Part shown: positions 7,141 to 30,265 of the stretch, piece after piece
Position numbering within the stretch: position 1 is the first letter of the stretch
Layout: each line of letters begins with the position of its first letter
DNA from: a virus
Virus record (IMG/VR): IMGVR_UViG_3300045988_113479
Location: 1-35,867 of that record
Length of the DNA: 35,867 bases
Strand: one strand, 5' to 3'
Made by a program: the position numbers and the translations under genes
Notes under the pieces: model-generated
What the model saw: the letters and a program-made list of their open reading frames with translations, nothing else
The model's database searches: none
What the model was told of the DNA's origin: nothing

Positions 7141-7148
7141 TCAACCCA

Positions 7149-9026: not shown

Positions 9027-9030
9027 CCGC

Positions 9031-9085
9031 CACACAAGACGAGGCCCCTCCAACCGGACTGGTTGGAGGGGCCTCGTCTTGTGTG
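9031..9085. terminator. bidirectional terminator at the convergence of the two arms (25-bp perfect stem)
   Basis: CACACAAGACGAGGCCCCTCCAACC 9031-9055 is the exact reverse complement of 9061-9085, with a 5-nt loop. It sits between the plus-arm stop (9026) and the minus-arm stop (9089). Confidence 0.8.
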
Positions 9086-9088
9086 TGC

Positions 9089-10283: not shown

Positions 10284-10285
10284 GA

Positions 10286-11332: not shown

Positions 11333-11334
11333 GG

Positions 11335-11646: not shown

Positions 11647-11659
11647 GAAAAGCCCCCTT

Positions 11660-15828: not shown

Positions 15829-15848
15829 ACGCTAACCGTCCCTTCCTG

Positions 15849-18800
15849 TTAGAAGCCTGCGCCGAGGAGATCACGGGCGCGCGTGCGAGAAGCCGGAGCC
15901 AGCGCGTCATTCACCGCGCCCCTGGCCGCGACGCGCATCCGCGCCATGAGCTGGCCGTCCTCGTCCACGACCACCAGCGTATCCGGCCCGCTGGTCGCTG
16001 CGACGCGGTTCTGAAGCGCGTCCCACTGACCAGACGTAAAGACCGGCTCAGGCTTACCCGTCTTGTTCAAGACCGTGGTCAGGCCCGGCTGGAGATAGCC
16101 CCCATTGTCGAACTTGTAGGTGCCCGCCGTGGGGGACCCCCAGATGCCGGTCTCGCGCACGAAAGCGCCGGGCTTAGGTGCCTCCACCATCATGCCGTTA
16201 CCGGACGAAATGGCGACGTGCCTGGCGGGGTTGCCCCAGTACAGGAGCGTGCCGGGGACGTTGACGTTTCCCGCGCTGGAGCCAGCCTGGTAGCCCGCTG
16301 CCGTCAGGCGGGGAATCGAGCTGCCCATCTGGTGGGCGGCCCAGTAGACCAGGCCGGAGCAGTCCAGGCCCGGAGGAATAGAGCTGCCGCCCCACACGTA
16401 GGGCACGCCGATAGCCTTACGGGCGGCGTTGACGATGCCGACCGCGCCCATCGTCTCCGTCTTGCCCTTCAGCCAGTTGGCGAAACCGTCGATCCAGATG
16501 CCAGGGACGGCCCTCATGGAGTCCGAGATCATGCCAGAGCCAGGCAAGTTAGCCATCATGGCGTTGACCGGGGCCTTGATGAAGTTCGCCACCGCGCCAA
16601 TCGGGTCGGCAATGATCTTCCCCATCGTGTCGGCTGCGTCCTTGATCCAGTCCCAGCCGCCCTTCACAGCACCCCAGATACCGCCGTTCGCGTAGGCCGC
16701 GAACTTGACCCCCGTGTCCCCGCCGGGGATGTAGGAGGAGTGCGCCCGGGCGGCGGCGTTCATACGCGCCACGGCCTCGGGACCACCCACCGCGCGCACC
16801 CACTCGGGGCGCATAATGGCCTCGCCGCCGGACAGGGCGAGCGCGCCGCCACCATCCGGGGAGAAGAAGTGATAGATGTCCCGGCCCGGCGTGTATCCGG
16901 GGAGGACACCGCCCGAGGCGTACTCGGCGATAGGCGAGACCGCCGGGAGACGGAAGGACAGGCCGAGCTTCTCGGCCATCGAATCCGCCGTCTTCTTGAT
17001 GCCCGAGGTGTAGACCGTGTTGATGATGAAGTTGATGGGCTTGGCGACCACGGACTTGACCGAGCTCCAGATATTCGCCACGCTGTCCTTCATCGACTGG
17101 AAGGCGCTCTGGATACCGCCCGTCACCGTTGAGATGATGGACTGGAGGGTGCCACTCATCCAGGTTGCCACGGAGTTGATGGAGGACTTGATGCCTTCCC
17201 AGATGGAGGTGATGGCCGTCCAGAGTGCCTGCGCGCCGGACTTGATGCCTTCCCATACGGTCGAGATCACGGGCAGCACGTAGGACTGGAACCAGCCCGT
17301 CACCGTCTGCACCGTCGTCTGGATGCCCGTCCACACGGTCTGAATACCCTGCCACAGGAGGCCCGCGCCCGCCTTGATGCCGTCCCACACGGCGGTAATC
17401 ACCGGGAGGACGTAGGTCTGGAACAAATCGGCGGCGACCTGCACGCACGTCTGGATGTAGTTCCAGTAGGCCTGGATGCCGTCCCACAGGAGGCCCGCCC
17501 CGGCCTTGATGCCGTCCCACACGGCGACGATCACCGGGAGGACGTAGGCCGTGAAGAAGTCCGCCACGGTCTGCACCGCCGTCTGGATGCCCGCCCAGGC
17601 CGCCTGCATGTACTCCCACAGGGTCGCCACCCCGGTCTTGATGCCCTCCCAGGCGGTCTGAATGTAGGGCCACACGTAGGTCACGATGAAGTCGGCAATC
17701 CCCTGGAGGACGGCCTTCCACGCCTCGATGTACAGGGCAATGGCCGTGACGACCACCCAGACGGCGACCTTGATCCCCTCCCACACGGCCTCAAAAACAG
17801 GCAGGAGGTAAGTCTGGAACCAGTCGATGACCGAGCCGACGGCGGACTTGATGCCCGCCCACATGCCGTCGATGAAGTTCCTGAACGTCTCGGACTTGTT
17901 GTAGGCGACGACGAAGGCCGCGACCAGCGCGCCAATAGCGACCACAATCAGACCGATCGGGTTCGCGTCCATAGCCGCGTTCAGCAGCCACTGGGCGGCG
18001 GTGTATGCGCCCGTGGCGACCTTGCCAGCCACCATAGCGCCCTTCTGGGCAACCCAGGCGGCGGTCGTGCGGCCAACCTGCACGCCCTGCTGCACGATGC
18101 TACGCAGGAAGTCCCCCGCGTACATGGCCTTCAGCGCGACGGTCTGCGCGAGGTCTTCGGCCTTGGCGACCTTCGCCGCCGTCCAGGCCGTCACCTGGCC
18201 CCACACCTGAGTCGTCAGCGCGACAAGGCTCATGGTGCCCGTGACCGTCTTCCAGGCGATAAAGCCGCCCACGACGGCCTCCAGGATCACCTTATTCTGC
18301 ACGAGCGCGCCGAAGAATGACCCCAGCACGCCCCAGAACGGGGACGACACCACGCTACCCAGGAAGTTCGCCACGCCAGGGATAACCGTCGTGGACATAA
18401 AGCCCCAGATGTCCATGACGTTATCCCTGACCGATAGGATAAAGTCGATAAGGCCGGAGTCCTCCTGGACCCCGAAGAAGTTCCCGTCGAAGTTGCCGTT
18501 GACCGCGAGGTCAAAGAAGGACTGCACGCCAGGGACGAGGGTACCTGTCACCCAGTTATACAGGTCCAGGCCGGCGTCCTTGATCGTGGTCAGGGCAGTG
18601 ATGACCCCCGAGTCCGACGCGAGGCCGAACAGGTTCCCGTCGTAGGAGCCGGTGGTTACCAGCGTCCAGATCGACTCCAGCGCCGGGAACAGGCTCCCGT
18701 TAATCCAGCCGAAGGCAGCGGATGCGCCCTCGGCCACCACGCCCATGAAGTCGGTCAGGGCGGGCTTGATGCGGTCCACGATCTCCATACCGCCCGTGAC

Positions 18801-19574
18801 GAGCGCCGCCTGGAGGTTGCCCCACGCGCCCTCAATCGTGCTGGTAGAAGTTGCCGCCTCCCGCGCCACGTCGGTGAAACCAAGGTCCAGAATCGCCTGG
18901 TTGAATTCCTGGGCGGTGATCTCGCCCTTCGCCATCGCATCCCGGAAATTCCCCGTGTACGCGCCGTTCTTCTCCAGGGCCTCCTGGAGCTTGCCAGACG
19001 CGCCCGGAATTGCGTCGGCCAATTGGTTCCAGTTCTCAGTGGTCAGTTTTCCCTGCCCAGCCGTCTGGGTCAACACCATACCCACCGACTTGAAGGTATC
19101 CGCATTGCCGCCCGCGACGGCGTTGAGGTTACCCGCCGCCTCGGCAAGCTGGTCGTAGCCCTCAACACCATTCGCGGCGAGCTGCGCCGTGATGTTCTGG
19201 ATATCGGCCAACTCGTAGACCGTGTCGTCCGCGTACTTCTTCGTACTAGCGGTCAGCTTCTCGATCTCATCCGACGCGACACCAGCGAAGGACAGCGTGT
19301 TCTTGAACTTGTCGGTCGCGTCACTAGCCGCCAGCGCCTCCCTGGCGACATCCGCGAAACCCACCACCGCGCCGATGGCACCCATAGCGCCGAGGGCGAG
19401 CGCACCGGCCTTGGCCGCGCTCTTGAAAGCGCCGCCAAGGCCGGACTCGATCTTCTTCTCAGCGGGCCTGGTATCGACGTCGCCCAGCTCCTTGCGGACG
19501 GAATCGTTCAGGCCCTTCAGGGACGGCGCGATCTGAATCCACGCCGTACCCAGGCTAAAGCCGTTTTCCGCCAC
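15849..19574 (-). CDS. tape measure protein (1241 aa) with C-terminal NlpC/P60 peptidase domain
   Basis: GTG start with AGGAG SD. Gly/Ala/Trp-rich helical repeats. NlpC/P60 motif GVPYVWGGSSIPPGLDCSGLVYWAAHQ...HVAISSGNGMMVEAP at about 16098-16445. Confidence 0.9.
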   Translation of the reverse strand: MAENGFSLGTAWIQIAPSLKGLNDSVRKELGDVDTRPAEKKIESGLGGAFKSAAKAGALALGAMGAIGAVVGFADVAREALAASDATDKFKNTLSFAGVASDEIEKLTASTKKYADDTVYELADIQNITAQLAANGVEGYDQLAEAAGNLNAVAGGNADTFKSVGMVLTQTAGQGKLTTENWNQLADAIPGASGKLQEALEKNGAYTGNFRDAMAKGEITAQEFNQAILDLGFTDVAREAATSTSTIEGAWGNLQAALVTGGMEIVDRIKPALTDFMGVVAEGASAAFGWINGSLFPALESIWTLVTTGSYDGNLFGLASDSGVITALTTIKDAGLDLYNWVTGTLVPGVQSFFDLAVNGNFDGNFFGVQEDSGLIDFILSVRDNVMDIWGFMSTTVIPGVANFLGSVVSSPFWGVLGSFFGALVQNKVILEAVVGGFIAWKTVTGTMSLVALTTQVWGQVTAWTAAKVAKAEDLAQTVALKAMYAGDFLRSIVQQGVQVGRTTAAWVAQKGAMVAGKVATGAYTAAQWLLNAAMDANPIGLIVVAIGALVAAFVVAYNKSETFRNFIDGMWAGIKSAVGSVIDWFQTYLLPVFEAVWEGIKVAVWVVVTAIALYIEAWKAVLQGIADFIVTYVWPYIQTAWEGIKTGVATLWEYMQAAWAGIQTAVQTVADFFTAYVLPVIVAVWDGIKAGAGLLWDGIQAYWNYIQTCVQVAADLFQTYVLPVITAVWDGIKAGAGLLWQGIQTVWTGIQTTVQTVTGWFQSYVLPVISTVWEGIKSGAQALWTAITSIWEGIKSSINSVATWMSGTLQSIISTVTGGIQSAFQSMKDSVANIWSSVKSVVAKPINFIINTVYTSGIKKTADSMAEKLGLSFRLPAVSPIAEYASGGVLPGYTPGRDIYHFFSPDGGGALALSGGEAIMRPEWVRAVGGPEAVARMNAAARAHSSYIPGGDTGVKFAAYANGGIWGAVKGGWDWIKDAADTMGKIIADPIGAVANFIKAPVNAMMANLPGSGMISDSMRAVPGIWIDGFANWLKGKTETMGAVGIVNAARKAIGVPYVWGGSSIPPGLDCSGLVYWAAHQMGSSIPRLTAAGYQAGSSAGNVNVPGTLLYWGNPARHVAISSGNGMMVEAPKPGAFVRETGIWGSPTAGTYKFDNGGYLQPGLTTVLNKTGKPEPVFTSGQWDALQNRVAATSGPDTLVVVDEDGQLMARMRVAARGAVNDALAPASRTRARDLLGAGF
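17124..17783 (-). repeat. five tandem 44-aa (132-bp) coding repeats inside the tape measure
   Basis: W(E/D)GIK units start at aa 598, 642, 686, 730 and 774 (for example WDGIKAGAGLLWxGIQ...YVLPVI.AV). DNA-level repeats such as gccttgatgccgtcccacacggc recur 132 bp apart. Confidence 0.8.
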
Positions 19575-19583
19575 GTCAAGCTC

Positions 19584-19970
19584 CTAACTGTGCGCCGCGA
19601 TCCAACGTCGCGCCCGTTCATCACGCCTCTGGGCCTCTGCCTCCGCCCGCTCGAACCAGCCAGGCTCAGGCGGGGCGACAGGCTTGGGCACGTCGCCCTT
19701 CTTGCCACCCAGGGACGTAATGATTATACCCTCCAGACGGTGGTTAGCGGCGAAGGTAGCCGCCACCTCGTCCGTCCAGGCCGCTGCTCCGCCCATGCGT
19801 TTGCGGAGCAGCGACCCGGAGGGCAGGTTGTCGATCAGCACCTTGACACGACGCAGCGACAGGCCGCCGGTGAAAACCTCCGTCAGGTCAAGGTTGTAGG
19901 TCATCTGGAAGTCGGCCTCCAGCACCTCCCAGTGGTCCTCCAGGAAGGTGGCGAGGCCGATCAGTTTCCC
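19584..19970 (-). CDS. tail assembly chaperone, -1 frameshift extension (gpT-like part of the G-T fusion)
   Basis: The -1 frame is open from the slippery GGGAAAC (19970-19964) to stop 19584. It contains the typical RRVKVLIDNLP segment. Confidence 0.7.
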   Translation of the reverse strand, partial: GKLIGLATFLEDHWEVLEADFQMTYNLDLTEVFTGGLSLRRVKVLIDNLPSGSLLRKRMGGAAAWTDEVAATFAANHRLEGIIITSLGGKKGDVPKPVAPPEPGWFERAEAEAQRRDERARRWIAAHS

Positions 19971-20314
19971 TGTCGGAGAGACCGGAAAACCGACTGGACA
20001 AACTCGACCACCTTGGAGTATCGGAGCTTGCCGGACTCCTCACGGAGGGCGGTCAGCGCGGCCTCGCGCTCGCCCTCATCCGGGATAAGTAGCTCCAGCA
20101 TGGGGCGGTAGTCGCCCTGCTCCATTGCCACCATTGCGTCGAAATCATCCACGTCGGTGGGGTCAACGTCGAGGGCAACGCCCATGACCTCGACGTGAAC
20201 GGGCTGGGGCGCGCCAGTGTCGCGCTTGGACTGGGCCTCACGGCGCGCCAGCTCAGCGGCGGACGGTGCCTTACGGGCGGCGGGCTTACGGGCGGTGGTG
20301 GTCTTGGTAGCCAT
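19961..20314 (-). CDS. tail assembly chaperone (gpG-like, 117 aa)
   Basis: Start moved to ATG 20314 (AGGAGAACAG SD). Lies between the major tail and tape measure genes and ends at the slippery site. Confidence 0.75.
   Translation of the reverse strand: MATKTTTARKPAARKAPSAAELARREAQSKRDTGAPQPVHVEVMGVALDVDPTDVDDFDAMVAMEQGDYRPMLELLIPDEGEREAALTALREESGKLRYSKVVEFVQSVFRSLRQGN
19964..19970 (-). other. -1 programmed ribosomal frameshift slippery heptamer G_GGA_AAC
   Basis: On the minus strand, cag GGA AAC tga. The X_XXY_YYZ heptamer ends 1 nt before the gpG stop, and the -1 frame continues GGG AAA CTG ATC... Confidence 0.7.
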
Positions 20315-20376
20315 GATCTGTTCTCCTAAAAATTGGCTATCGGTTAAATTGGCCTGTTCTCCAAAGGGGTGTGATG

Positions 20377-20418
20377 CCCACCCGCGCGCCGGGAGAACAG
20401 ACACGGCGCGCGGGTGGG
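20377..20418 (-). terminator. hairpin (15-bp stem, 12-nt loop) downstream of the major tail protein gene
   Basis: CCCACCCGCGCGCCG 20377-20391 pairs with CGGCGCGCGGGTGGG 20404-20418. No U-tract. The loop carries the complement of the downstream SD. Confidence 0.6.
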
Positions 20419-20428
20419 AGACCAGGGG

Positions 20429-21004
20429 TCAGACGACCTTCAGGCCCTCCTCATCGGTCAGGAGGACGTAGCCGTCCAAGACCTCGAGGTTGTATTCGTA
20501 CACGGTCAGCTCGCCGACCTTGTACGAGATGTCGGAGCGCTCGCCCAGCTCCAGGCGCTTGAAGACATAGCGCCTCTGCTTTCCGGTGGACACGTCGAAA
20601 AGGTCGGCAACGCCGACGAGGCCCTCAACCTTACGGGAGGTCGAAACCTCCATGCGAGTGATCGAGGACGTGCCAGCCGTGACCTTCTCGGTCTTCAGCA
20701 CGCCCAGGTAACGCTTCAGAAGCTCGAGCTTGCTTTCAAGAAGCGAGGCCTTGAACGTCGTGGACGACTCAGACATGTACGTGCGGACAACGCCGTGGCC
20801 CTGATGGCCGCGAACCTTGTCCACCGAGTCGGACATGCCAAGGCCCATGCCGTCCTCGGACAGCCAGCCCACGTCGATCATGCCCGTGGGCATGGGAGTG
20901 GTCAGGTTGGTGATCGTGGACAGGTCGGTATTCGCAGGGCCGAGATAGAGCGTGTCCTTCTCGGAGCCTGCCATGAACGCGAGATCGGCGTTAGTATTAC
21001 TCAC
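20429..21004 (-). CDS. major tail protein
   Basis: 191 aa directly upstream of the G/T chaperone genes. GTGA coupling to the upstream gene. Followed by a strong hairpin, as is typical for highly expressed structural genes. Confidence 0.8.
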   Translation of the reverse strand: MSNTNADLAFMAGSEKDTLYLGPANTDLSTITNLTTPMPTGMIDVGWLSEDGMGLGMSDSVDKVRGHQGHGVVRTYMSESSTTFKASLLESKLELLKRYLGVLKTEKVTAGTSSITRMEVSTSRKVEGLVGVADLFDVSTGKQRRYVFKRLELGERSDISYKVGELTVYEYNLEVLDGYVLLTDEEGLKVV

Positions 21005-21414
21005 GGTGCAACTCCTAATTTTGCGGTGACTTGGTACGTCGCAGTGTAGCGACGCAGATCGGTGTCAGGATCGGGCAGTTCCGCCGGAGCGGGAGACTGC
21101 ACGACCGCCACCGGGCCGTCCGCACTCGGGAGAGCGTGGACAGCATCCCCCACGCGGCGGGCAAGCTCGCCCGCCCACCACGAGGTGGGCGCGTAGGAGT
21201 CGATGGTTATCTGAGCGGTGTAGAGGACGCGATCATGCTGACCGGGGCCTCCCGTCGCCAGAACGAGGACGTAAGGATGGGGGTCGCCCTCGGTGGAGGG
21301 GCGCACGCCGCCCACCGTGGTGCCCGCCAGCTCGCCCTCAAGGCCCCGGACAACGCCGGGCCGGTTCAGGTAGTCGATCACCAGCTTCTGGAGATCGGGG
21401 AGTGGGTGGCTCAT
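21001..21414 (-). CDS. tail terminator / tail completion protein (DUF3168-like position)
   Basis: 137 aa immediately upstream of the major tail protein gene. The call rests on synteny. Confidence 0.6.
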   Translation of the reverse strand: MSHPLPDLQKLVIDYLNRPGVVRGLEGELAGTTVGGVRPSTEGDPHPYVLVLATGGPGQHDRVLYTAQITIDSYAPTSWWAGELARRVGDAVHALPSADGPVAVVQSPAPAELPDPDTDLRRYTATYQVTAKLGVAP

Positions 21415-21416
21415 GA

Positions 21417-21656
21417 TTAGCCCCTTCCTACGGCGCGCTCCAGCACGTGGTCGCGCGCCTGTCGCTTACGGGCCTTGTACGTTTCCGGGAGGACGTATGC
21501 TCGCGCGCGGTCCTTACCGACCCGCACGCCAGACGTGAAGCCTTCCCCGGCGCGCGCGGCCACAGCCGCCGCCTTCTGGGCAAGCAGGGCCTGCACCTCT
21601 GACCCCTTCAGGATGGCCTCCGCCGTCCTCTTATTTGGCTTGAACTTAACGCTCAC
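21417..21656 (-). CDS. head-tail joining protein (small, 79 aa)
   Basis: GTG 21656 with GGAAGGAGG SD. Lies between the head-closure and tail-terminator genes. Confidence 0.55.
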   Translation of the reverse strand: MSVKFKPNKRTAEAILKGSEVQALLAQKAAAVAARAGEGFTSGVRVGKDRARAYVLPETYKARKRQARDHVLERAVGRG

Positions 21657-21996
21657 GCGGGGCCTCCTTCCTGAGTCGCAGATATACCCCCAGGGGGTAC
21701 CCTACCAGGGAGCCGACCGGCTCCCACACGCCACCACGCAGACGCACACGGTCACCAGGCAGGACGGAGGCCGGAGCCTCGTCCCGATTATCCCAGTAGA
21801 TCGTCACGTCCTCACGGGTGCCGTAGTCCTCGCCCGTATCCGGGCGGTTCTCGGACTCCGTGGTGGCGACCAAGACCGGGGCCAGCGCGATCTCCTGAAC
21901 GTCATGCGTCCGGAAAGCGACCCCCAGGGGGTCACGCTTCGGCTCCGACCTGCGCAACAGCGTCGCCGGTTCCTTCCATGCCTCCATGACGCTCAC
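21646..21996 (-). CDS. head closure / head-tail adaptor protein
   Basis: Start taken at GTG 21996 (GTGA overlap with the upstream stop); ATG 21987 is the alternative. About 116 aa, with typical size and position. Confidence 0.6.
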   Translation of the reverse strand: MSVMEAWKEPATLLRRSEPKRDPLGVAFRTHDVQEIALAPVLVATTESENRPDTGEDYGTREDVTIYWDNRDEAPASVLPGDRVRLRGGVWEPVGSLVGYPLGVYLRLRKEAPRER

Positions 21997-22391
21997 GAGC
22001 GACCCCCAAACAGGGTGTCCGCGCACCCGAAAAACGAGGCCGTCGCACCGTTGATGTCGTCGCGGTCCTGCCTCGTGAGGAACATATCCCCGCTCGGGGT
22101 CGACCACGACGTGGACATGGTGAACGGGCCGGTGGTCTGGGTGACCTGGGAGGCATCCCCGGCCACGCCCGCCGGACGCTGACGCAAAGCGCGGGCGACG
22201 ACGCGGCACACGACCGCCACCCGCACCGACTCCGGCGCGCCCTCCCAGCCCGCGCAGCGGTGCCGGATGAGGTCGCTCGCGTCCTCCAGGAGGACCTGAG
22301 CGCGCGCCGGGGCCGCGTCCACCACCCGAAGGTCCTCGGGGGACAGACGGTCGCGCAGATCGTCAAGCGTGGCGAAGGCGAGGGCGGTCAC
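21993..22391 (-). CDS. head-tail connector (gp6-like) protein
   Basis: Start taken at GTG 22391, just after the upstream stop. The N-terminus ATLDDLRDRL...DASDLIRHR resembles gp6-like connector proteins. Confidence 0.6.
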   Translation of the reverse strand: MTALAFATLDDLRDRLSPEDLRVVDAAPARAQVLLEDASDLIRHRCAGWEGAPESVRVAVVCRVVARALRQRPAGVAGDASQVTQTTGPFTMSTSWSTPSGDMFLTRQDRDDINGATASFFGCADTLFGGRS

Positions 22392-22392
22392 G

Positions 22393-22623
22393 TCAAACCA
22401 GCTCCTCGTCGGCCTTCTTGCCGGACTTCTTGCCCTGCTTCTCGTCCTCAACGGGCGCGGCCTCGGGAGCGATCAGACCCAGGTCCTCCGCGCGAGCCGC
22501 CAGCTCGAGGACTTCGCCCGCCAGCTTCTCGTCGGTAACCGTGGCCGACCCCTCGGTGAACTGGATACTGCCCGAAGGCAGGACCAGAAGCAGCTCAGGG
22601 TAGATGCTCGAGTAGATGTTCAC
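22393..22623 (-). CDS. hypothetical small structural-module protein (76 aa)
   Basis: GTG 22623 with GAGGAGAAC SD. Lies between the capsid and connector genes. Lys-rich C-terminus. Confidence 0.55.
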   Translation of the reverse strand: MNIYSSIYPELLLVLPSGSIQFTEGSATVTDEKLAGEVLELAARAEDLGLIAPEAAPVEDEKQGKKSGKKADEELV

Positions 22624-22646
22624 GGTGTGTTCTCCTCACAGTTGAG

Positions 22647-22683
22647 CCGGAGGCGGGGCCGATGCTCAAGGCCCCGCCTCCGG
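22647..22683 (-). terminator. hairpin (14-bp stem) immediately downstream of the major capsid gene
   Basis: CCGGAGGCGGGGCC 22647-22660 pairs with GGCCCCGCCTCCGG 22670-22683, with a 9-nt loop and no U-tract. Confidence 0.6.
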
Positions 22684-22689
22684 AGTCGG

Positions 22690-23643
22690 TCACGACAGCT
22701 TCAGCTTGCCGTGGTGCTGCTCAGCACCGTACTTGAGGCCGATCTCGCCGTAAATCTGGACGCGATCAAGCGCGCCCGTCTTGGCGAGAGGCTCGGCAAA
22801 GAACGTGCCCTTGCCCGGAATCTCCAGGAAGACGGGCACGCACTCCTCAAGCGACACGACCAGGAGGGTGTCGGCAGGAACATCATTGTCTAGCATGATG
22901 TTGCACTTGCCAAAGTCGGTCTCGATGGCCTGAACGTCCACGCCGCCGACCGTGCGGGAAGACTCGCGGTAGCCGTTCTCCTTGATGAACACCTTGGAGA
23001 GGGCACGCTTCATCTTCGCACCGACCAGGATCGTGCGGGTCTCGCCCTCACGGATGCCGCCGTGCTCCCACACCTTCTGGAGGGTGTCCAGCACGAGGTC
23101 CTCGGTCAGGTTGCCGGTGCCCGCCACGACGTTCGTCGTGATGGCATCGACAAGACCGCGCGTCTTTCGAGGCGTGGTGTTGTCGGTGGGGTTCTGGTAG
23201 GTGCCCGTGATGAACGCCTTGTTCACGTCCAGGGCGACCTGCTTCAGGGACAGGTCGATCTGGTGCTTCAGCTCGGACTCGGGCATGGTCGTGGTGCCGA
23301 TGGTCACCAGCTTCTCGCCGTCGGTCGAGCGCATACGAGTGGTGGCCTGTCGCGTGTAGGACAGCTCCACGACCTCCTGGTGAATCTCCAGGACGTTGGA
23401 CACGCGAGAGCGCACGCGCTCCTCACCCGTGGGAGCCTGAGCGCCCTCGGTGCGCTGGCGGGTAATATCCGCGTCGCGCAGGTCCTCGGTCTGCCACTCG
23501 ATGAGGGTGGCCCCTGCGGTCTCGCCGCCGGTCAGACCGCCGATAGCGGACAGGAAAGGCGTGTCATCCTTGGAGACCAGGAACAGGTCTCCTGTGTAGT
23601 TGGGCAGATTGTAGGTCGTACCCTGACCAGTAACGCCGGTCAT
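22690..23643 (-). CDS. major capsid protein
   Basis: 317 aa directly after the scaffold gene, with the strongest SD in the window (AGGAGGAAAC-ATG) and a following hairpin. Confidence 0.85.
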   Translation of the reverse strand: MTGVTGQGTTYNLPNYTGDLFLVSKDDTPFLSAIGGLTGGETAGATLIEWQTEDLRDADITRQRTEGAQAPTGEERVRSRVSNVLEIHQEVVELSYTRQATTRMRSTDGEKLVTIGTTTMPESELKHQIDLSLKQVALDVNKAFITGTYQNPTDNTTPRKTRGLVDAITTNVVAGTGNLTEDLVLDTLQKVWEHGGIREGETRTILVGAKMKRALSKVFIKENGYRESSRTVGGVDVQAIETDFGKCNIMLDNDVPADTLLVVSLEECVPVFLEIPGKGTFFAEPLAKTGALDRVQIYGEIGLKYGAEQHHGKLKLS

Positions 23644-23651
23644 GTTTCCTC

Positions 23652-24305
23652 CTAGATGAGATTGGACGCAGCCGAGAGCTTCGCCAGCTTGAGGCTGGAG
23701 AGCGCGGCGTGGTCGCCGTTCGCCTCAGCGCGGGCGATCATCTCGTCAACGCTGAGCACCTCCCCGCCGAGGTTCTTCGTCCCCACGGTGGGGAGCGTGG
23801 ACGTGGAGGCAGCCCCGGCGGGTGCCGGGGTGGACTTAGCGAGACCCTTCAGGGCCTCATTCAGAGCCTCGAGGTCCGCGTCATCGCGGATGAAAGACCC
23901 AAGCGTGGCGGGGATGCCCGCCTTCTCCAGGCGCTGCGCGCGCTTCGCCTCGCGCTCGCGGGCCTCCTCACGGTCGCGCATCTCCTGGAGCTGCGCCTGA
24001 AGGGCCTCGACGCTCGCCTGGAGCGCCTTCACCGCGTCCTGAGCGTCCTCGGAGGGCGCTTCAGTGGCCGCCTGCGCGTCCTCAGCGGGTGCCTCGGGCG
24101 CTTCAGGCGCTTCGGGGGAGTCCGCGGACTCCTCGGAGGCCTCCTCAGCCGGTGCCTCGGGCGCTTCAGGGGCCACCGGAGCGTCCTCAGCGGGTGCCTC
24201 GGGCGCTTCGGGAGCCGCCGGAGTAGCCTCCGGTGCCTCGGGGGCCTGATCGACAGCGGGAGCGGCCTCCTGGACCGCCTCCGTGGCCTTAGCCTTCTTC
24301 TTCAT
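23652..24305 (-). CDS. scaffolding protein with an acidic PEAPEAPAE-repeat N-terminal region
   Basis: Start moved to ATG 24305 (GGAGAAGGAGAACAGGA-ATG). APEAPEAPAED repeats followed by a coiled-coil region (QASVEALQAQLQEMRDREEAREREAKR). Located upstream of the capsid gene. Confidence 0.8.
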   Translation of the reverse strand: MKKKAKATEAVQEAAPAVDQAPEAPEATPAAPEAPEAPAEDAPVAPEAPEAPAEEASEESADSPEAPEAPEAPAEDAQAATEAPSEDAQDAVKALQASVEALQAQLQEMRDREEAREREAKRAQRLEKAGIPATLGSFIRDDADLEALNEALKGLAKSTPAPAGAASTSTLPTVGTKNLGGEVLSVDEMIARAEANGDHAALSSLKLAKLSAASNLI

Positions 24306-25122
24306 TCCTGTTCTCCTTCTCCCGAGAAGCCGCGAGCTTCTCAAGCCTGCGCGAGCGGAGCGCCCGCGAAGGACGATCCACACCCTGACCATCCGAGAAC
24401 ATTTCGGGGTGGCCGTCCCGCATATACGCCGTAATTATACGCCCAGATGGTGCCTTCACACCATCTTTCACCGCAGCACGGCGCGCCGACAGGTACGCCG
24501 CGTACATATCGTCCGGATGGTAACCAGGGAGCGCCTTGTGCTCCCAGTCCGGCACAATGCGACAGTCGCACGAGTCGTGGTACTCGTGCCCCGCCCCGCC
24601 CGCCAGGTCCTTCGAGTGATACACCCAGCCGCGCGAGGCCAACAGCGTGCAGAACGCACACGTCTTTCCGACCGGGACGCGGGCAAAGCGCGGGGCGCTC
24701 GGGTCCAGGTCCGCCGCCCGCAGGATCGACCGGCGCGCGCCCGTCTGAATCTCACGCCCAATCGCGCCCGCCACGACGCGGATCGCCTTCCCCGGGTTGT
24801 CGTGGCCCAGGCCCGCCGCGTAGCGGCTCAGCCGGTCGATCCGCTCCGCAGAGTTCGCCGGGATCAGCGCCTTCGGCGTGTACGCCGTCTTGTACGCAGG
24901 GCGCAGCTCCTGATACCAGTCGAGCGCGCCCTGCGTGAGCGCAGGGCCGTAAGCGTCAACGAGGCTGCTCAGGAAACGCTTCATCTCCTCACGCGACAGC
25001 GGCACGTCCTCGAAGTTCAGGACGCGGAACAGGCTCACCAGCTGGTCCTCCGCGCCCGTGAGCGTCGCCCTGACCAGCTGATCGTAGACCTTCAGCTGCT
25101 CAGATGAGGTCAAAATCACCAC
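24289..25122 (-). CDS. MuF-like / SPP1 gp7-like minor head protein
   Basis: Follows the portal gene. Start approximate (GTG 25122 or 25119, or TTG 25113). C-terminal motif RFARVPVGKTCAFCTLLASRGWVY...HDSCDCRIVP is typical of MuF-like proteins. Confidence 0.7.
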   Translation of the reverse strand: MVILTSSEQLKVYDQLVRATLTGAEDQLVSLFRVLNFEDVPLSREEMKRFLSSLVDAYGPALTQGALDWYQELRPAYKTAYTPKALIPANSAERIDRLSRYAAGLGHDNPGKAIRVVAGAIGREIQTGARRSILRAADLDPSAPRFARVPVGKTCAFCTLLASRGWVYHSKDLAGGAGHEYHDSCDCRIVPDWEHKALPGYHPDDMYAAYLSARRAAVKDGVKAPSGRIITAYMRDGHPEMFSDGQGVDRPSRALRSRRLEKLAASREKENRNEEEG

Positions 25123-26554
25123 CCCCGGCGGCAGGGCCGCGAGCGCCACGCAGAATCGCGTCCAGGTTATCCCGGCCCCGCGTCTGCTCGATCTGCGCCC
25201 GCATCCGCGTAATCTGCTGGCGCGTGTAACCCAGCTCCTCCAGGGCGACATCCGTCTTCCCAATCTCCGGGATAGCCTGAATCTGCTTGATCATCGCGTC
25301 CGACTGGGAGACAATCGACGGGCGAGCCGGGTTGCGCCAGTGCGTCGAGATACGCGCCGCGTCCTCGGGCAACCACCCGTCACGCAGCATCAGAATGTTG
25401 CGATACACGCGGTTAAGCGCGTAGCTGTTCGCGTCGTTGAAGTCAGAGGCTTCGGTCACCAGCTCCTCGCGCGCCGCGTAAATCGCGTCCGCCGAGGATG
25501 GGTTGTCCTGGACGATGCCGAGGGACCCCACCGGGAGGGACAGCGCGCCCGCCATCTCCTGCGCCAGCTCACGGAGCTGGTCGACGTAGGGCTGCATGGA
25601 CTGCTGGGGGATCATGTCGACCTCGGGGAGGTCGCCTTCCTCGTCGCGGGAGATGCCCTTGACCGACCCGAGTCGCCAGCTCCAGGACCCCTTAATCTGG
25701 TCGAACGTCGTCTTGTCCACGCCGCGCAGGAGCAGGCCAGGCGCGGTGAAAAGCTCCGAGGACACGTCCATGCGCATCGAGGCGCGCACGGCGCGGTCCA
25801 CGATGGACAGCACGCCGTCCGTGAGCCTGGACCTCCCCAGCGGTCGATCCAGGTTGCCGCGATAGACAAGCGCCTCCATAGGCGTGCGGCCCAGGTGGTG
25901 CTCCACATGCCCCGTGACAAACCAGCCCTGCGCGCCCAGGGGAGCCATGCTCACCATCACGTGCGGGGTGAGCAGGATCAGCTCCGTAGGCCTGCCCAGG
26001 TAGTCCACGTCGTTGATGAGAAGCCCGGCGCGGATGCCCCGTCGACGTCGGTCCCACAGCGCCGCCGCCGTCATAGCCGAATAGGGCAGGACGAGGACCG
26101 GCGGGTCACCCGCCGCCACGTCGCCGGGGAGCGTCGTCAGGAAAGCCACGCCGTGCGTCGCCGCGCTGGCGACCGCCTGCCCGATCTCCGTCGAAAACCT
26201 GTTCTCCTCCAGGATCGAGGCCAGCCCGTAAGGGTCCTCCGACCCATCCGGAGCCACCACACCGTCCCAGTGACACCGGGAGGTGAGCGAGAAAACGGCC
26301 TTCTCCGGCCACGTGGACACTAGGCGCAGGTCGCGCGCGATCTCCCGAGGCAGCGCAATGTCCAGACTGTCGACGTACACCTTGCAGTCGAGATAGGCCT
26401 GGCGGCGGGCATTGCCCGGATAGCGGGCCTGCCAGGTGTTCACCAGCTCCTCCAGCGTCGCCTGGAGATCGTCAGGCAGGCCCGCCACAGTGGGCGCGGT
26501 GAATAGCTGGGGTCCCATGCCCGCGATCAGACGCAGGTCGACGTTGGTGGTCAT
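25100..26554 (-). CDS. portal protein
   Basis: 484 aa with an ATGA overlap to the large terminase stop. Size and synteny are canonical. Confidence 0.85.
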   Translation of the reverse strand: MTTNVDLRLIAGMGPQLFTAPTVAGLPDDLQATLEELVNTWQARYPGNARRQAYLDCKVYVDSLDIALPREIARDLRLVSTWPEKAVFSLTSRCHWDGVVAPDGSEDPYGLASILEENRFSTEIGQAVASAATHGVAFLTTLPGDVAAGDPPVLVLPYSAMTAAALWDRRRRGIRAGLLINDVDYLGRPTELILLTPHVMVSMAPLGAQGWFVTGHVEHHLGRTPMEALVYRGNLDRPLGRSRLTDGVLSIVDRAVRASMRMDVSSELFTAPGLLLRGVDKTTFDQIKGSWSWRLGSVKGISRDEEGDLPEVDMIPQQSMQPYVDQLRELAQEMAGALSLPVGSLGIVQDNPSSADAIYAAREELVTEASDFNDANSYALNRVYRNILMLRDGWLPEDAARISTHWRNPARPSIVSQSDAMIKQIQAIPEIGKTDVALEELGYTRQQITRMRAQIEQTRGRDNLDAILRGARGPAAGGGDFDLI

Positions 26555-28086
26555 GCGAGGGCCTCCTGGCTCCTATTCGGGCGGCGGCGCGTCGTCCGCG
26601 CCATCCACAGCGCCACGCTCACGGCCTCCAGGGGCACCTCGTCGCCCTCCTGGGCCGTCGAGTGCCACCCCCACGCGCCGTCCGTGGTCCTGATCTTCTT
26701 GTCTGACACCCCCACAGACGCATCCAGGGGGTCGCTATCCGCATTATACCCGCCCGGGTGCGAGACCGTGCGACCCCTGACCGCGTTCAAGAAGCCCGAG
26801 CAGGCCGTGAAGTACTCCGCGTTGTCCAGGACGTGCAGGTAGCGGCGCGGCGGACGCAGCGCGCGCAGGTCCTGCTGGAGCGCCAGAGCGCCCGAACGGC
26901 CCGACACGCCCACCGCCGAGTAGCGGCCCCGCCGCTCGTACAGCCATTCCGCGAGCGCCGCGCTGTTCATGTTGGAGAAATCGCCGGCTTCGAGGTCGAT
27001 CAGCTCCACGTGGGACACGCCAGCCTTGCGGTCGTGCAGCGCGCCAGCCACCGCGACGCGCCGCCCATCCTTCGAGAACGCCACCCCCAGCGCCCGCACG
27101 GCGCGATCCGTGGTCAGCTCAGGGGCAAGCTCGGTGACCCCCGTCGCCTCCCAGTCATCCAGGCCAATCAGGCGGCGCGTGTTGTCATCTGAGGCCCACC
27201 AGCCTAGGCGCTCGCGGGCGAAACCATCGTCCGAGTACCGCTTGCGCTCAGCCTCAATCACGCTCAGCTTCAAGCGACCAGACGCGACCGCCGGATTGGT
27301 CCGCACCCACAGGTCCCGGTCATCCAGATCGACCTCAGCCAGCGACCTGGGCAGGCCAGGCGGAGACCACTCATCCCAGCACGTGCGCGAAGACTCACCG
27401 CTCAGCGCGTCGCGGCGCACGCGCGAAAACACCTCGCCCTCCGCCGTCGGACCCGGCGGCGTGCCCGTGTAAATCCACTGCGGGTCACCCAGCGGGGCCG
27501 CCGACGTGGTGGACAGAAGCGCCTCCAACGCCTCGTCCGTGAGCTGCTGCGCCTCGTCCATGACGAGAATATCGACCGTGAAACCACGGCCCGACCCCTT
27601 CGAGCGGGCGGCGATCTCGATAGACCCGCCATTCTTCAAGAAGATGGCCTCCTGGCCGTTCACGTTGCGGATGTTCTCCACGAGGGCGTTCAGCTCGGGG
27701 AACTTCGCGCCTGGGTCGTTCGTCTTCTGCCCGAAAAAGTGCTTCAGTCGGCGGAAATGCTTCTGCGCCGTCTTCACCTCGTGCGCCGTATGCAGGATGC
27801 GCTCACCGCGCCCGATCACGCCGAACAACTCCCTGATCTCCAAGGCGGCGTTTTTGCCATTCTGGCGGGGCACGGCCAGCCCGCATGTGAGGTTGGCCCA
27901 GCTATCGCCCGCCGTCGCCAGCCAGTTGTCCAGGACCCAGGCCTGCCAGGGGTCTGGAACCAGCTTGTAGTCGGCTGCCAGGGATATGGCGAGGTCCCCC
28001 AGCGAGTCAATCGAGGGGGACGTGATGGTCACGCAGGGGCGCTGGGAGGCCTCCAGCGCCTCCCGGCTAGGAGGCGCGGGTGTCAC
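26551..28086 (-). CDS. terminase large subunit
   Basis: Walker A-like VPRQNGKNAALE, Walker B ILVMDEAQQL, and a C-terminal nuclease-type region. 511 aa. Confidence 0.9.
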   Translation of the reverse strand: MTPAPPSREALEASQRPCVTITSPSIDSLGDLAISLAADYKLVPDPWQAWVLDNWLATAGDSWANLTCGLAVPRQNGKNAALEIRELFGVIGRGERILHTAHEVKTAQKHFRRLKHFFGQKTNDPGAKFPELNALVENIRNVNGQEAIFLKNGGSIEIAARSKGSGRGFTVDILVMDEAQQLTDEALEALLSTTSAAPLGDPQWIYTGTPPGPTAEGEVFSRVRRDALSGESSRTCWDEWSPPGLPRSLAEVDLDDRDLWVRTNPAVASGRLKLSVIEAERKRYSDDGFARERLGWWASDDNTRRLIGLDDWEATGVTELAPELTTDRAVRALGVAFSKDGRRVAVAGALHDRKAGVSHVELIDLEAGDFSNMNSAALAEWLYERRGRYSAVGVSGRSGALALQQDLRALRPPRRYLHVLDNAEYFTACSGFLNAVRGRTVSHPGGYNADSDPLDASVGVSDKKIRTTDGAWGWHSTAQEGDEVPLEAVSVALWMARTTRRRPNRSQEALA

Positions 28087-28315
28087 GCTTGCGCATCCTC
28101 GCCTTGAAGATGTCCACGGCGGTCTCCTCGCGGCCCTTGGGAGGCGTGGGGGAGGCCGAGGGCACCGGGTTTTCCAGCTCGTAGAGGTCGCGGGACAGCT
28201 TGTTGGCGGCGTTCAGGAGCGCCGACAGGCTATCGGGCTTCGCCACCCGGATGGCCTCCCGTGCGGTGTCCAGGAGGTCGCGCAGCTCCGCTTCGCGGTC
28301 GTACTTCTCGGGCAT
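28067..28315 (-). CDS. putative terminase small subunit (82 aa)
   Basis: Helical protein with a basic tail that overlaps the terminase large subunit start by 20 nt. The call rests on position only. Confidence 0.4.
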   Translation of the reverse strand: MPEKYDREAELRDLLDTAREAIRVAKPDSLSALLNAANKLSRDLYELENPVPSASPTPPKGREETAVDIFKARMRKRDTRAS

Positions 28316-28316
28316 G

Positions 28317-28679
28317 TCAGATCAGCCCCGCCGCGTCGGCTGGCAGCACCTCGTGGATGCCGGACTTTTTCAGGCACGTTTCCATGAGGTAGGAGACGTT
28401 CACGCCGGGCGCGATATAGGCCCTGACCGCGCCGTCGATGGCGCGGTTTCGGTTCGCAGCCGTGATCTGCTTGGGTGTGCGCAGGTAGACGCGGGCGCGG
28501 CGCTTGCGGTCCTCCAGGTACTCGGCACGGTGAAGCGAGTGGGTGCGGTACGTGGGGTCGTACTGGCCGACGAACGGCTGGAATTTGCGGCGCAGAGCGT
28601 CGCGGTTCGGGAAGATCACGACGGAGTATGCCCCGTTGGGGGTCTCGTCGAGCAGATCGAGCAGGTCAAAGTCGTTCAT
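28317..28679 (-). CDS. hypothetical protein (120 aa); first gene after the HNH-proximal gap and an alternative small-terminase candidate
   Basis: ATG 28679. The stop abuts the next start. No motif recognised. Confidence 0.55.
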   Translation of the reverse strand: MNDFDLLDLLDETPNGAYSVVIFPNRDALRRKFQPFVGQYDPTYRTHSLHRAEYLEDRKRRARVYLRTPKQITAANRNRAIDGAVRAYIAPGVNVSYLMETCLKKSGIHEVLPADAAGLI

Positions 28680-28948
28680 GGGGCCGATTATAGCATATCC
28701 GGGTGGTTTTAGCGCATGACGTGTTTAGCGCTTAGGGGCGGTTTCGGGTACCCCAGGGGGGTATTTCGCTTGGGCCTCTGGGTGTTCCTGGTTGTTGGGG
28801 GAGGGGATACCGCCCCTTGTCAAGTGGTAAGTATTGGTTTCGGGCGTGAGGTTTGCCACATCTGGGGTGCTGGTTGTAGCAGTTCCCGGCACTTCGGTTC
28901 GGATGGTGCTCCCCATCCACTCACGAACGGGCTTCGGGTAGGTGGTGT

Positions 28949-29263
28949 TCACCATTGGATGCCTCCGACGGTGTGGGGCTGGGCTGGCCTGGGCTGACTT
29001 GGGATGGGTTTGGAGCCGCGCTTCTGGTTGCATTGGCGGCAGGTGACGCGGGCGTTGTCGATGGTGTCGCCCCCACCTCGTGCCACCGGGACCACGTGGT
29101 CTGGCTCTGGGCTGCGAGGCTGGAGCGTGGTCCCCCAGGCGAGTGGTTGCCCGCAGTCTGGGCAGTGAGTTTGTCCGTTGGCCTGTGCGAGGTGGAGGAC
29201 GCGGACGCGCCACCGCTTGTGCCGGGCGGTGCCGGTGCGGGAGGTGCCGGGTCTGGGGGTCAT
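28949..29263 (-). CDS. HNH endonuclease (terminase-associated type)
   Basis: Zinc-ribbon CPDCG, then DHVVPVARGGGDTIDNARVTCRQCNQKRG (H-N-H core). Located upstream of the terminase genes. Confidence 0.85.
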   Translation of the reverse strand: MTPRPGTSRTGTARHKRWRVRVLHLAQANGQTHCPDCGQPLAWGTTLQPRSPEPDHVVPVARGGGDTIDNARVTCRQCNQKRGSKPIPSQPRPAQPHTVGGIQW

Positions 29264-29374
29264 GGGGTGAGTGTAGCACGCGGGGCCTACCTCGCGTGGC
29301 CCGATGCGCCTACCTCGTGGTGTGCGTGGGGCCGGGCGGCGGGGTGGTGGGTGTCAAGTGTTTAGCGGTTTCGT

Positions 29375-29468
29375 CTTGTTACAGCGTGGTTTCAACGTTT
29401 GTGGGGTGGGGTGGGGTCTTGTTACATCTTGTTACGGGCTTGTTACAACCTTGTTACGCTTTGTTACG
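29375..29468 (-). repeat. left iteron array: six GTAACAAG sites on the minus strand (TTGTTAC on plus), five of them phased at 10-11 bp
   Basis: TTGTTAC at 29376, 29419, 29429, 29440, 29451 and 29461. Spacings of the last five are 10, 11, 11 and 10 bp. Confidence 0.85.
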
Positions 29469-29499
29469 TGGGTTTTTCGTTGGTATTCTGCGGAACTTT

Positions 29500-29640
29500 A
29501 CACTCTTGTAACGAGATGCCTTATATCCCTATATAGAGCAGATTCTTAGCAAAGTTGTTCAATAGTATTGCATGCTAACGCGTTACTGATCATCTTTTCG
29601 CTATTTAAAGTAAATAGGATTTCTTGATACGGGGCGCGAG
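29500..29640. other. AT-rich island in the divergent intergenic region
   Basis: My hand count over 29521-29620 gives 32 G+C out of 100, against a genome that is roughly two-thirds G+C. Contains palindromes CTATATAG (29529-29536) and CTATTTA-aag-TAAATAG (29601-29617), and TTTTCG repeats. Confidence 0.8.
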
Positions 29641-29724
29641 CGCTTTTCGCCGTTTTCGCTGCGATACCAAGGCAAAACAGGTGTAACAAGGGTGTAACGA
29701 GAAGTTGTAACGAGTTTTCGTTAC
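29508..29724 (+). repeat. right iteron set: GTAACGAG/GTAACAAG sites on the plus strand
   Basis: GTAACGAG at 29508, GTAACAAG at 29683, GTAACGAG at 29694 and 29707 (spacings 11 and 13 bp), plus inverted GTTAC at 29582 and 29720. Confidence 0.75.
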
Positions 29725-29821
29725 ACCCCGTTTCGGGTGTCTACTACTGTGCGACCTTCGGCGGCGGTGGCACACGAGGTCGGCCCCGGACGCCTCGACA
29801 CCGCACCATTCAAGCGCTAAC

Positions 29822-30265
29822 ATGGGGTGTATGGAATGTTTAGAACCGTGCGGCAAGCGCCGCCCCTATGTCATTGACCATGCCCTCATCCCTGAGCCGG
29901 GCGGTGATCGTCGGCTCCTCGTGGGCCTCGACTCGTGCGGCCACGTGTGGGTGAGCCTCACCGACGCGCTGCGTAACAGCGGCCTGTCGGATGCGCCGCC
30001 GACCTATCGTGCGACGGTGATCGGCCTCGGTGGTGGCCGCGTCGTGCGGCCTCGTCTTGCGCCTGGTCGCATCCGTGCCATGCTCCCCCTCATGGTGGAC
30101 GCGCCCGCGTGCGTCGCGCTGATTGCCCACACAGGGCGCGCCGGACTGCTGACCTACCGCTCCGACGTGCGTCGGTGGATCGACCACACGCTGGGCATCT
30201 ACTCGCTGGTGGGCGTGAACGCGGCCCCCGTGGTGTATCCCTGGCCCGAGGAGGTGGCAGCGTGA
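29822..30265 (+). CDS. hypothetical Cys-containing protein (147 aa), first gene of the plus arm
   Basis: ATG 29822 (or 29831) with no clear SD. N-terminal CMECLEPCG...SCGH suggests a zinc ribbon. Its stop overlaps the next start (GTGA). Confidence 0.5.
   Translation: MGCMECLEPCGKRRPYVIDHALIPEPGGDRRLLVGLDSCGHVWVSLTDALRNSGLSDAPPTYRATVIGLGGGRVVRPRLAPGRIRAMLPLMVDAPACVALIAHTGRAGLLTYRSDVRRWIDHTLGIYSLVGVNAAPVVYPWPEEVAA

Follow-up and report, generated by a model that had tools for sequence, protein, structure and literature searches.

A probable iteron-type replication origin at the divergent gene junction of an uncultured high-G+C phage

Between the two divergent gene arms of the phage genome described here lies a 558-bp non-coding gap (29264-29821), in which short repeats in opposite orientations flank an AT-rich island. 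Is this gap a replication origin and, if so, which protein reads its repeats? The window, meaning the whole stretch of 35,867 nt that was analyzed (IMG/VR virus record IMGVR_UViG_3300045988_113479), has identical first and last 55 nt and forms a circular assembly of 35,812 bp with a G+C content of 66% (0.664). The plus-strand arm runs from 29822 over the assembly junction to ~9.0 kb. The genes of the two arms are arranged as follows.

28086..26551, minus strand: large terminase, followed by portal, head, tail and lysis genes down to ~9.1 kb
Between HNH and the large terminase, minus-strand arm: genes for a 120-residue protein (p120) and an 82-residue protein
29263..28949, minus strand: HNH endonuclease, then a 270-bp gap before the p120 gene
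29822-30265, plus strand: p147, a Cys-rich protein of 147 residues, first gene of the plus arm
30268..30597, plus strand: VRR-NUC nuclease, separated in the window from the array by p147
After VRR-NUC, plus-strand arm: three small proteins (one with DUF2786/DUF7168), a secreted protein of 418 residues and the small p69
33493..34821, plus strand: SNF2-family helicase, a member of the replication module
34841..1392, plus strand: primase-helicase of 787 residues, crossing the assembly junction (5′ part 34841..35812, 3′ part 1..1392)
Downstream of the primase-helicase, plus-strand arm: DUF2800 nuclease, Enc34-type SSB and family-A DNA polymerase (PolA)

The gap behind the primase-helicase stop codon measures 31 bp. 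With the large terminases of Cutibacterium acnes phages, that of the window shares 45% identity. Megablast with the region and with 25 kb of the genome gave no match among GenBank phages, and a TerL scan of the genome collection for a host found no relatives. Actinomyces phage xhp1 was followed up as a possible relative and showed no link. The arrays are intergenic, the open reading frames that run over the repeats carry no coding signature, and Rfam returned no match for 28500-30000 at E values up to 1.

The repeats had been described in a sequence-only reading of the same DNA, whose coordinates are all correct to within 1 nt and whose length of 558 bp for the gap is confirmed. The repeat unit is a site of 8-9 bp, (T)GTAAC(A/G)AG, and the elements of the region are, from left to right:

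29375..29382, minus strand: outlying iteron GTAACAAG, 36 bp beyond the left block, of which most type-A relatives keep a copy
29418..29467, minus strand: left iteron block of four GTAACAAG (29418-25, 29428-35, 29439-46 and 29450-57) and one GTAACAAA, with starts 10, 11, 11 and 10 bp apart
29500..29640, no strand: AT-rich island of ~140 bp, G+C 0.38, the presumed DNA unwinding element
29508..29515, plus strand: solitary inner iteron GTAACGAG on the border of the island, its GTTACAA invariant in alignment A1
29683..29724: right iteron block, with GTAACAAG at 29683 and GTAACGAG at 29694 and 29707 on the plus strand (spacings 11 and 13), ending in a degenerate inverted copy, GTAACGAA, at 29717-29724 on the minus strand

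The sites are confined to this region to a degree that chance does not reproduce. All nine matches to GTAACRAG in the 35.9-kb window fall within 29375-29714 (0.79 expected), and none of 100 shuffles reached nine. Once the degenerate copies at 29460-67 and 29717-24 are counted, 29375-29724 holds 11 GTAACRAR sites, and a two-mismatch search of the rest of the window with TGTAACAAGG added nothing convincing. The six minus-strand sites first reported comprise five perfect copies of GTAACAAG and a sixth, at 29460-67, that is imperfect (GTAACAAA; TTTGTTAC), whereas the spacings claimed for the last five of them are exactly as found. The plus-strand sites at 29508, 29683, 29694 and 29707 are all present, as are the inverted GTTAC at 29582 and 29720. 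Taken as a whole, two opposed blocks flank the AT-rich center, the left side with five copies on the minus strand and the right side with three on the plus strand.

The island between them is the least G+C-rich part of the genome. Its lowest 100-bp value is 0.31 (29530-29629), against 0.48 for the next lowest outside the region and a genome mean of 0.664; the 32% counted by hand for 29521-29620 proved exact (0.32). Folded as single-stranded DNA, the island gave a z-score of -1.2, which is not significant and indicates no structured element or small RNA. Five plus-strand TTTTCG repeats had been listed, and there are indeed five, the window's sole plus-strand copies, although three of the positions were off by one (they start at 29474, 29595, 29644, 29653 and 29715); in the whole window TTTTCG occurs 12 times against 6.3 expected. 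The inner iteron at 29508 overlaps a weak promoter-like match, TTGTAA-18-TATATA, which was read by eye and was missed by the promoter scan.

If the repeats have a function, relatives of the phage should preserve them. A protein-guided scan of IMG/VR yielded 50 related loci, and the arrays are kept in all loci with a terminase identity of 88-98% that extend to the region. In 23 distinct sequences, three sites in one orientation are followed by 205-225 bp containing the AT island and then by three to five sites in the opposite orientation. The island is found in all these relatives, with a G+C minimum of 25-34%. The aligned sequences show little or no variation in the GTAAC cores, whereas the spacers of 2-4 nt vary: in the left block (the ‘right block’ of the reverse-complement alignment) identity across 21 distinct relatives is 0.87 in the cores versus 0.52 in the spacers, and in the right block 0.75 versus 0.56. 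Because the layout is kept in 23 distinct regions and the cores are more conserved than the spacers, the alignments indicate that purifying selection acts on the sites. Two sequence types differ in copy number and even in the orientation of single copies, which is how functional repeat arrays evolve. A 13-bp palindrome of the type-B relatives is degenerate in the window. The interval between the blocks (~215 bp) also holds further conserved blocks, an observation that sits less easily with the origin reading.

The next question is which protein could recognize such sites. Only VRR-NUC, SNF2 and the primase occur in every genome that carries GTAACAAG, joined by PolA, SSB and DUF2800 where the locus reaches that far. 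Among them, the primase-helicase alone has a homologue with demonstrated iteron binding. The sequence-only reading had held that no origin-binding protein could be assigned; this is incorrect, for the phage encodes a primase-helicase resembling Rep1 of the SaPIs. Pfam identifies a VapE-like domain in it (5e-53), and the 3′ part of its gene (1..1392) encodes an SF3 helicase core and a C-terminal domain. Searching the PDB with a profile made from the window protein and two relatives gave 7PDS, the SaPI1 Rep1-DNA complex, as the sole match (E 7e-83), with profile positions 365-797 aligned to Rep1 residues 16-464 of 477. The match spans both the helicase and the C-terminal domain. An AlphaFold model of the C-terminal domain made from the single sequence had a pLDDT of 57 and was unusable for a fold search.

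SaPI Rep is the initiator as well as a self-loading SF3 helicase, and its C-terminal winged helix recognizes short iterons; in SaPI5, primase and Rep are fused (PMC9371898). The SaPI origin consists of 6-12 iterons directly downstream of rep with an AT-rich center and two or more iterons on either side that point opposite ways, on which two hexamers are probably loaded, one per side (PMC9371898). By homology, the primase-helicase of the window probably reads its iterons. We therefore favor, as the likely explanation, that the region is a replication origin whose iterons would be read by the C-terminal domain of the primase-helicase; its type would most likely be the iteron origin of self-loading SF3 initiator-helicases, as in SaPI Rep and phage P4 alpha. 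The original suggestion that iterons plus an unwinding element amount to a replication origin thus gains support from the comparison with relatives.

A variant of this explanation keeps the origin and assigns the iterons to a host factor or to another phage protein. The Cys-rich product of 29822-30265 had been named as one candidate binder, and it is disfavored because L026/L050 (terminase identity 88%, 59% G+C) have the GTAACAAG arrays and lack p147; p54, p73 and the DUF2786 protein are absent from these two as well. The other candidate, the regulator at 3862-4215, is disfavored in the same way by its absence from L072/L239, two phages with the same motif from which gp3718/3862 is absent. The restriction of an iteron-binding homologue to the primase-helicase among the shared proteins also speaks against a different reader. 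In its favor, the array does not lie beside the primase gene in the window, and two comparisons described next loosen the tie between motif and primase. We consider a different reader quite unlikely. Adding its probability to that of the favored explanation makes it very probable that the region is an origin, whichever protein reads the iterons.

More distant relatives extend the comparison beyond the phage's own branch. An exact-pattern scan of IMG/VR for GTAACAAG-N2-4-GTAACAAG hit unrelated contigs for the most part; once filtered, which alone made it useful, it yielded L072 and L123/L239, phages at 46-48% G+C. They share with the window only DUF2800, SSB, PolA, the primase-helicase (35% identity to the window's), VRR-NUC and SNF2. 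Beginning 18-24 bp past the primase stop codon, they carry 10-14 copies of GGTAACAAG with AT-rich stretches between. The C-terminal domain of L072 is ~30% identical to that of the window despite the common motif, whereas L192-L197, with primases 61% identical, are without it. Specificity is therefore not simply readable from overall primase similarity, and both comparisons leave some room for another reader.

We also collected loci encoding related primase-helicases, both in IMG/VR and in bacterial genomes, and located the strongest array at each; to count as an array, a 7-mer had to recur five or more times inside 250 bp. In 53/85 loci (23/46 viral and 30/39 prophage) the strongest array lies within -60 to +350 bp of the primase 3′ end, a slot for which position alone predicts ~3% of loci. 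Hosts include Listeria, Enterococcus, Veillonella, Clostridia and Bacteroidota. A CTCAGGC ‘array’ behind the primase gene of L193 turned out to be a coding Pro-Glu repeat of the next open reading frame and was dropped, as were similar cases. The motifs are lineage-specific (GTGACAA, GGGACAA, TGTAACA, GTTAACA, GTAAACA, GGAAACA, GTACCCA, GAGCATG and others), and both orientations are usually represented among the copies. Many of these motifs are versions of TG(T/G)(A/G)ACA, and their presence in many lineages fits a slowly drifting conserved domain. Two phages in culture have comparable features. Staphylococcus phage phi12 has TGATGCAACA repeats following its virE gene. In Glutamicibacter phage Montesquieu, the closest isolated phage by its primase (41% identity), four plus four opposed GAGCATG sites with 11-bp spacing and an AT-rich center lie immediately upstream of VRR-NUC.

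Two gene orders emerge. Class I loci read DUF2800-SSB-PolA-primase-[array]-VRR-NUC-SNF2, and the high-G+C branch, or class II, to which the window and Montesquieu belong, reads [array]-VRR-NUC-SNF2-primase-DUF2800-SSB-PolA. Every relative examined has an iteron array ahead of VRR-NUC. Across 45 non-redundant primase/array pairs, motif similarity follows C-terminal-domain identity when the helicase core is controlled for (partial r 0.23, permutation p ~0.001); in the reverse control the value is -0.01 (p 0.54). The test is of the Mantel type, which is liberal for related sequences, and the effect is modest, which again leaves some room for a different reader; the covariation of motif and C-terminal domain lends support to the favored explanation and falls short of proof.

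The fixed position ahead of VRR-NUC could also be read in terms of transcription. Two promoter-like elements lie at the edges of the region:

29795..29823, plus strand: promoter-like TCGACA-17-TAACAT, both hexamers kept in at least 90% of relatives; outside the right block
29270..29275, minus strand: -10-like TACACT, 6 nt ahead of the HNH ATG (29263); outside the left block

The first is a putative leaderless promoter for p147, starting at ATG 29831 (or 29822), and the second a putative leaderless promoter of the structural arm. The scan for promoters and terminators found one promoter-like and two terminator-like sites, no more than in shuffles. Since both promoter-like sites are outside the iteron blocks, the origin would lie between two outward-facing promoters.

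With such elements at both edges of a region between divergent arms, the arrays might be operators at which a transcription factor controls the divergent promoters or the VRR-NUC/SNF2 operon, with no origin present. The constant place of an array directly upstream of VRR-NUC would suit this, as would the spacing, direct repeats with an 11-bp period being typical of some transcription factors. The predicted promoters, however, flank the blocks instead of overlapping them, and the sites of the window are all gathered at one place and not spread over several promoters. No regulator gene is conserved together with the arrays. Moreover, class I arrays lie within a co-directional string of genes right behind the primase gene, and the motif covaries with the primase C-terminal domain. 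We regard the operator explanation as unlikely. VRR-NUC/SNF2 is nonetheless the one invariant neighbor, which weighs somewhat on the other side, and promoter control of that operon is conceivable.

For the origin read by the primase-helicase, the homology with SaPI Rep suggests the following course of events. The C-terminal winged-helix domain would bind the iterons, one hexamer being loaded per block, and the AT-rich island between the blocks would melt. The N-terminal primase would then lay primers, and the family-A polymerase, the Enc34-type SSB, the DUF2800 nuclease, VRR-NUC and SNF2 would carry replication on, probably in both directions. As the blocks are opposed, the two hexamers would face opposite ways and produce bidirectional forks. 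From an origin at ~29.55 kb, the left arm measures 20.5 kb and the right arm 15.3 kb, and the two converge near 9.06 kb. With the origin where the divergent arms meet, genes would mostly be transcribed co-directionally with the forks.

The nucleotide composition was examined for traces of such replication. In either arm the plus strand has more C than G (net -754), and the skew forms no genome-wide V; the genome-wide skew inflection for which a check had been proposed is not seen, and the skew reverses only locally within 27947-30671, from 27947 to ~29500 and again at 30250-30671. The same skew pattern has been reported in C. acnes phages, where it was read as the mark of an origin (PMC3448167). 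The GC skew is compatible with an origin without being diagnostic of one, and it neither supports nor excludes bidirectional replication. Because the reversal is only local, it is from the opposed iteron blocks that we infer bidirectional firing.

How closely does the region resemble an established SaPI origin? The initiators are homologous, C-terminal domain included (SaPI1 Rep1, SaPIbov1 Rep and SaPI5 PriRep5), and the window protein, like PriRep5, fuses primase and helicase. As in the SaPIs, multiple short iterons surround an AT-rich center, with at least two opposed iterons per side. With these sites, the AT-rich center and the opposed blocks all present, the window shows the structural features of a SaPI origin other than adjacency to the initiator gene. 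There are differences. The iterons of the window are 8-9 bp long and those of SaPIs 5-6, and its blocks are ~215 bp apart, whereas in SaPI origins the distance is ~80 bp. In addition, the window is a complete phage of the lytic type that encodes a family-A polymerase of its own, known here from sequence, and not a satellite. The position differs as well: the origin lies 5.1 kb upstream of the initiator gene at the divergent junction instead of immediately 3′ of it. This adjacency is lacking in the window and in class II and is found in class I (23/46 and 30/39 loci). The distance of 5.1 kb and eight genes between the array and the primase start is itself a point against assigning the iterons to the primase-helicase.

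The two gene orders suggest a broader proposal, which we put forward tentatively and hold to be somewhat less than an even chance. An origin of the SaPI-like iteron type at a fixed slot immediately upstream of VRR-NUC may be a general rule of the DUF2800/SSB/PolA/primase/VRR-NUC/SNF2 module, which is widespread in phages and prophages, and its lineage-specific motifs would co-evolve with the C-terminal domain of the primase. Among high-GC members the origin would have moved to the divergent junction, where loading of the initiator could couple to the firing of both arms.

Since the region lies upstream of the HNH-terminase string of genes, the repeats might alternatively be recognized by the small terminase subunit as a cosB- or pac-like packaging signal, one of the uses considered in the sequence-only reading. 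Short repeats are indeed found on either side of the cut in the P1 pac site. The genome ends appear to be elsewhere, however. Contigs L017, L024, L025 and L027, each from a different sample, have their first nucleotides within ~25 nt of one another, at ~28766-28791 between HNH and p120; the closest iteron (29375) is ~600 bp away. One of the four opens with a 24-nt fold-back of the adjoining sequence, an artifact typical of real DNA ends. These starts coincide with the position of cos in C. acnes phages, in which the order is HNH-cos-TerS-TerL. The physical ends, whose location had been singled out beforehand as decisive for a packaging role, map to ~28766-28785 and are outside 29375-29724. Furthermore, the arrays of L072/L239 and most class I arrays lie between primase and VRR-NUC, inside the replication module and with no terminase near. 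A packaging signal is accordingly very improbable.

The symmetry of two repeat sets at ~11-bp spacing around a central region with promoter-like sequence also recalls R1 parC and its ParR protein, and a plasmid-type centromere could serve episomal maintenance of the phage, C. acnes-type phages being capable of persisting as pseudolysogens. This resemblance, too, had been noted before, but Pfam and PHROGs scans of the non-structural arm detected no ParM, ParA or ParR-like gene. The blocks are inverted rather than all direct, and throughout the family the arrays are linked to the replication module. We judge a centromere extremely unlikely.

Among other replication systems, the P4 alpha protein unites a primase and an SF3 helicase with a C-terminal domain for origin binding in one chain, and it recognizes octamer repeats, TGTTCACC, both direct and inverted, that lie in the P4 ori near an AT-rich stretch. 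The window is alike in its multifunctional primase-helicase and in repeats in both orientations by AT-rich DNA. P4 also requires a second, distant repeat cluster, crr, whereas the window has no second GTAACRAG cluster. An origin of the lambda type was considered and rejected: the arrays are not inside a gene, and no O-like initiator gene was found.

The kind of argument made here has been used before for a phage. In Enterococcus phage Abitsa (Efquatrovirus), an origin was predicted from a PriRep5-like self-loading helicase and seven 10-bp iterons around an AT-rich region (PMC13517437, 2026). Abitsa differs in phage lineage, motif and position, and its origin is likewise a prediction. As far as we found, neither the regularity of the arrays across the whole replication module nor the relocation of the origin to the divergent junction among high-G+C members has been described. 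For a high-GC family of uncultured phages known only from metagenomes, the comparison provides a testable origin and a named candidate initiator. It also provides dozens of natural pairs in which an iteron motif goes with the C-terminal domain of an initiator, from phages and prophages, spanning Listeria, Enterococcus, Staphylococcus, Veillonella, Clostridia, Bacteroidota, Corynebacterium and Glutamicibacter. Such pairs could serve studies of DNA reading by winged helices, origin annotation in such phages, and shuttle replicons.

Finally, the comparison bears on the C. acnes phages themselves. The map of phage P108C shows a leftward arm, a 2-kb non-coding region, HNH, cos, TerS and TerL, that is, the same two-arm architecture, with a non-coding region that separates the beginning of the leftward replication arm from an HNH gene by cos. 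That region is AT-rich and repeat-laden, and a skew anomaly is centered on it. It measures 2 kb versus 558 bp in the window and has no sequence similarity to it by megablast, and P108C encodes a DnaB-like helicase and a separate primase rather than a VapE/Rep1-type protein with PolA. The C. acnes region was proposed as an origin in 2012 from G+C content and skew (PMC3448167). Their origin, too, is a proposal, to which the arrays of the window lend indirect support at the matching position.

A repeat scan of the region recovered an imperfect inverted repeat, I2, with one arm at each iteron block. In each arm the innermost iteron of the block comes first and a 15-nt element after it. The two versions of the element (GTTTTTCGTTGGTAT and ATACCAAGGCAAAAC) are related and explain some of the TTTTCG copies picked out in the sequence-only reading. 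A second mirror-symmetric repeat, CGAGGT(A/C)GGC, precedes the predicted promoters of both flanking genes, and a 9-mer flanks the HNH gene. The repeats are as follows.

Repeats between and around the iteron blocks
29461-29486 and 29664-29689: arms of I2, a 26-nt imperfect inverted repeat
29285-29294 and 29308-29317, minus strand: CGAGGT(A/C)GGC, two copies before the HNH promoter
29775-29784, plus strand: CGAGGT(A/C)GGC, one copy before the promoter of the Cys-rich gene p147
28818-28826 and 29352-29360, plus strand: exact 9-mer TGTCAAGTG, one copy on each side of the HNH gene

In relatives carrying the type-B array region, the left I2 copy is apparently reversed in orientation (alignment A1). 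The AT-rich island of the window holds only short palindromes (TAACGCGTTA and GCATGC); the corresponding position in contig L004 and other type-B relatives (columns about 330-380 of A1) is occupied by a perfect 13-bp palindrome, TTGTTCAGTAGTA...TACTACTGAACAA, with an A/T run alongside. A cruciform or a terminator-like role is possible for this palindrome, which falls within the presumed unwinding region.

The window has four exact copies of CGAGGT(A/C)GGC, three of them at the listed sites, and the related contig L003 carries three ahead of its HNH promoter; a regulator or sigma factor may bind the repeat. Overlapping one 9-mer, the sequence GGTGGGTGTCAAG (29346-29358) matches 12 of 13 positions of GGTGGMTGTCAAG, the mycobacteriophage L5 stoperator consensus. 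With one mismatch allowed, the number of sites does not exceed chance, and no repressor gene was seen.

The GC skew is reversed, with a G-rich plus strand, at 27947-29500 and 30250-30671; over the rest of the genome the plus strand is C-rich on both arms. The reversed stretch takes in the terminase gene at its 5' end, then the small genes, the HNH gene and half of the intergenic region.

A likely cos site lies next to the upstream region of the 120-aa gene that sits upstream of the large terminase gene.

Putative cos site and adjoining upstream region
28766-28791: putative cos site, placed by the start points of four contigs
about 28700-28740, minus strand: GCGCTAAA, two copies between the putative cos site and the promoter of the 120-aa gene
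28687-28695, minus strand: extended -10 promoter TGCTATAAT, 7 nt before the ATG at 28679 of the 120-aa gene

The four contigs (L017, L024, L025 and L027) come from four samples, and L024 opens with a 24-nt fold-back of adjoining sequence. At their widest the starts are about 19 nt apart (ACACCCAGAGGCCCAAGCG|AAATACC), a scatter that may bracket the single-stranded overhang. L024 has three copies of GCGCTAAA versus two in the window, and the repeat may be a binding site for terminase or another protein. GCGCTAAC is also found ahead of the p147 start, and the array motif of relatives L208 and L209 is CGCTAAA. The extended -10 is kept in relatives (alignment A2), and because it lies so close to the ATG, the predicted promoter suggests a leaderless transcript of the 120-aa gene.

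Identity over 55 nt between the two ends of the window, 1-55 and 35813-35867, points to a circular assembly. Running across this junction, the primase-helicase gene does not show up in an ORF list of the linear window.

In contigs L193 and L194, of the group with 61% primase and 77% terminase identity, the primase gene immediately precedes the terminase genes and shares their strand. The fetched DNA of these contigs contains no GTAACRA sites and no match to VRR-NUC, SNF2, PolA, SSB or DUF2800, and no origin was located there.

The replication arm also encodes a protein that differs among relatives or is missing from them.

Protein with a predicted sortase signal
31968-33224, plus strand: 418-aa protein

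A signal peptide and a stalk rich in Pro and Thr are present, and the LARTG motif at the C terminus precedes a hydrophobic stretch and a basic tail. This is a predicted LAxTG-type sortase signal, as is typical in Actinobacteria.
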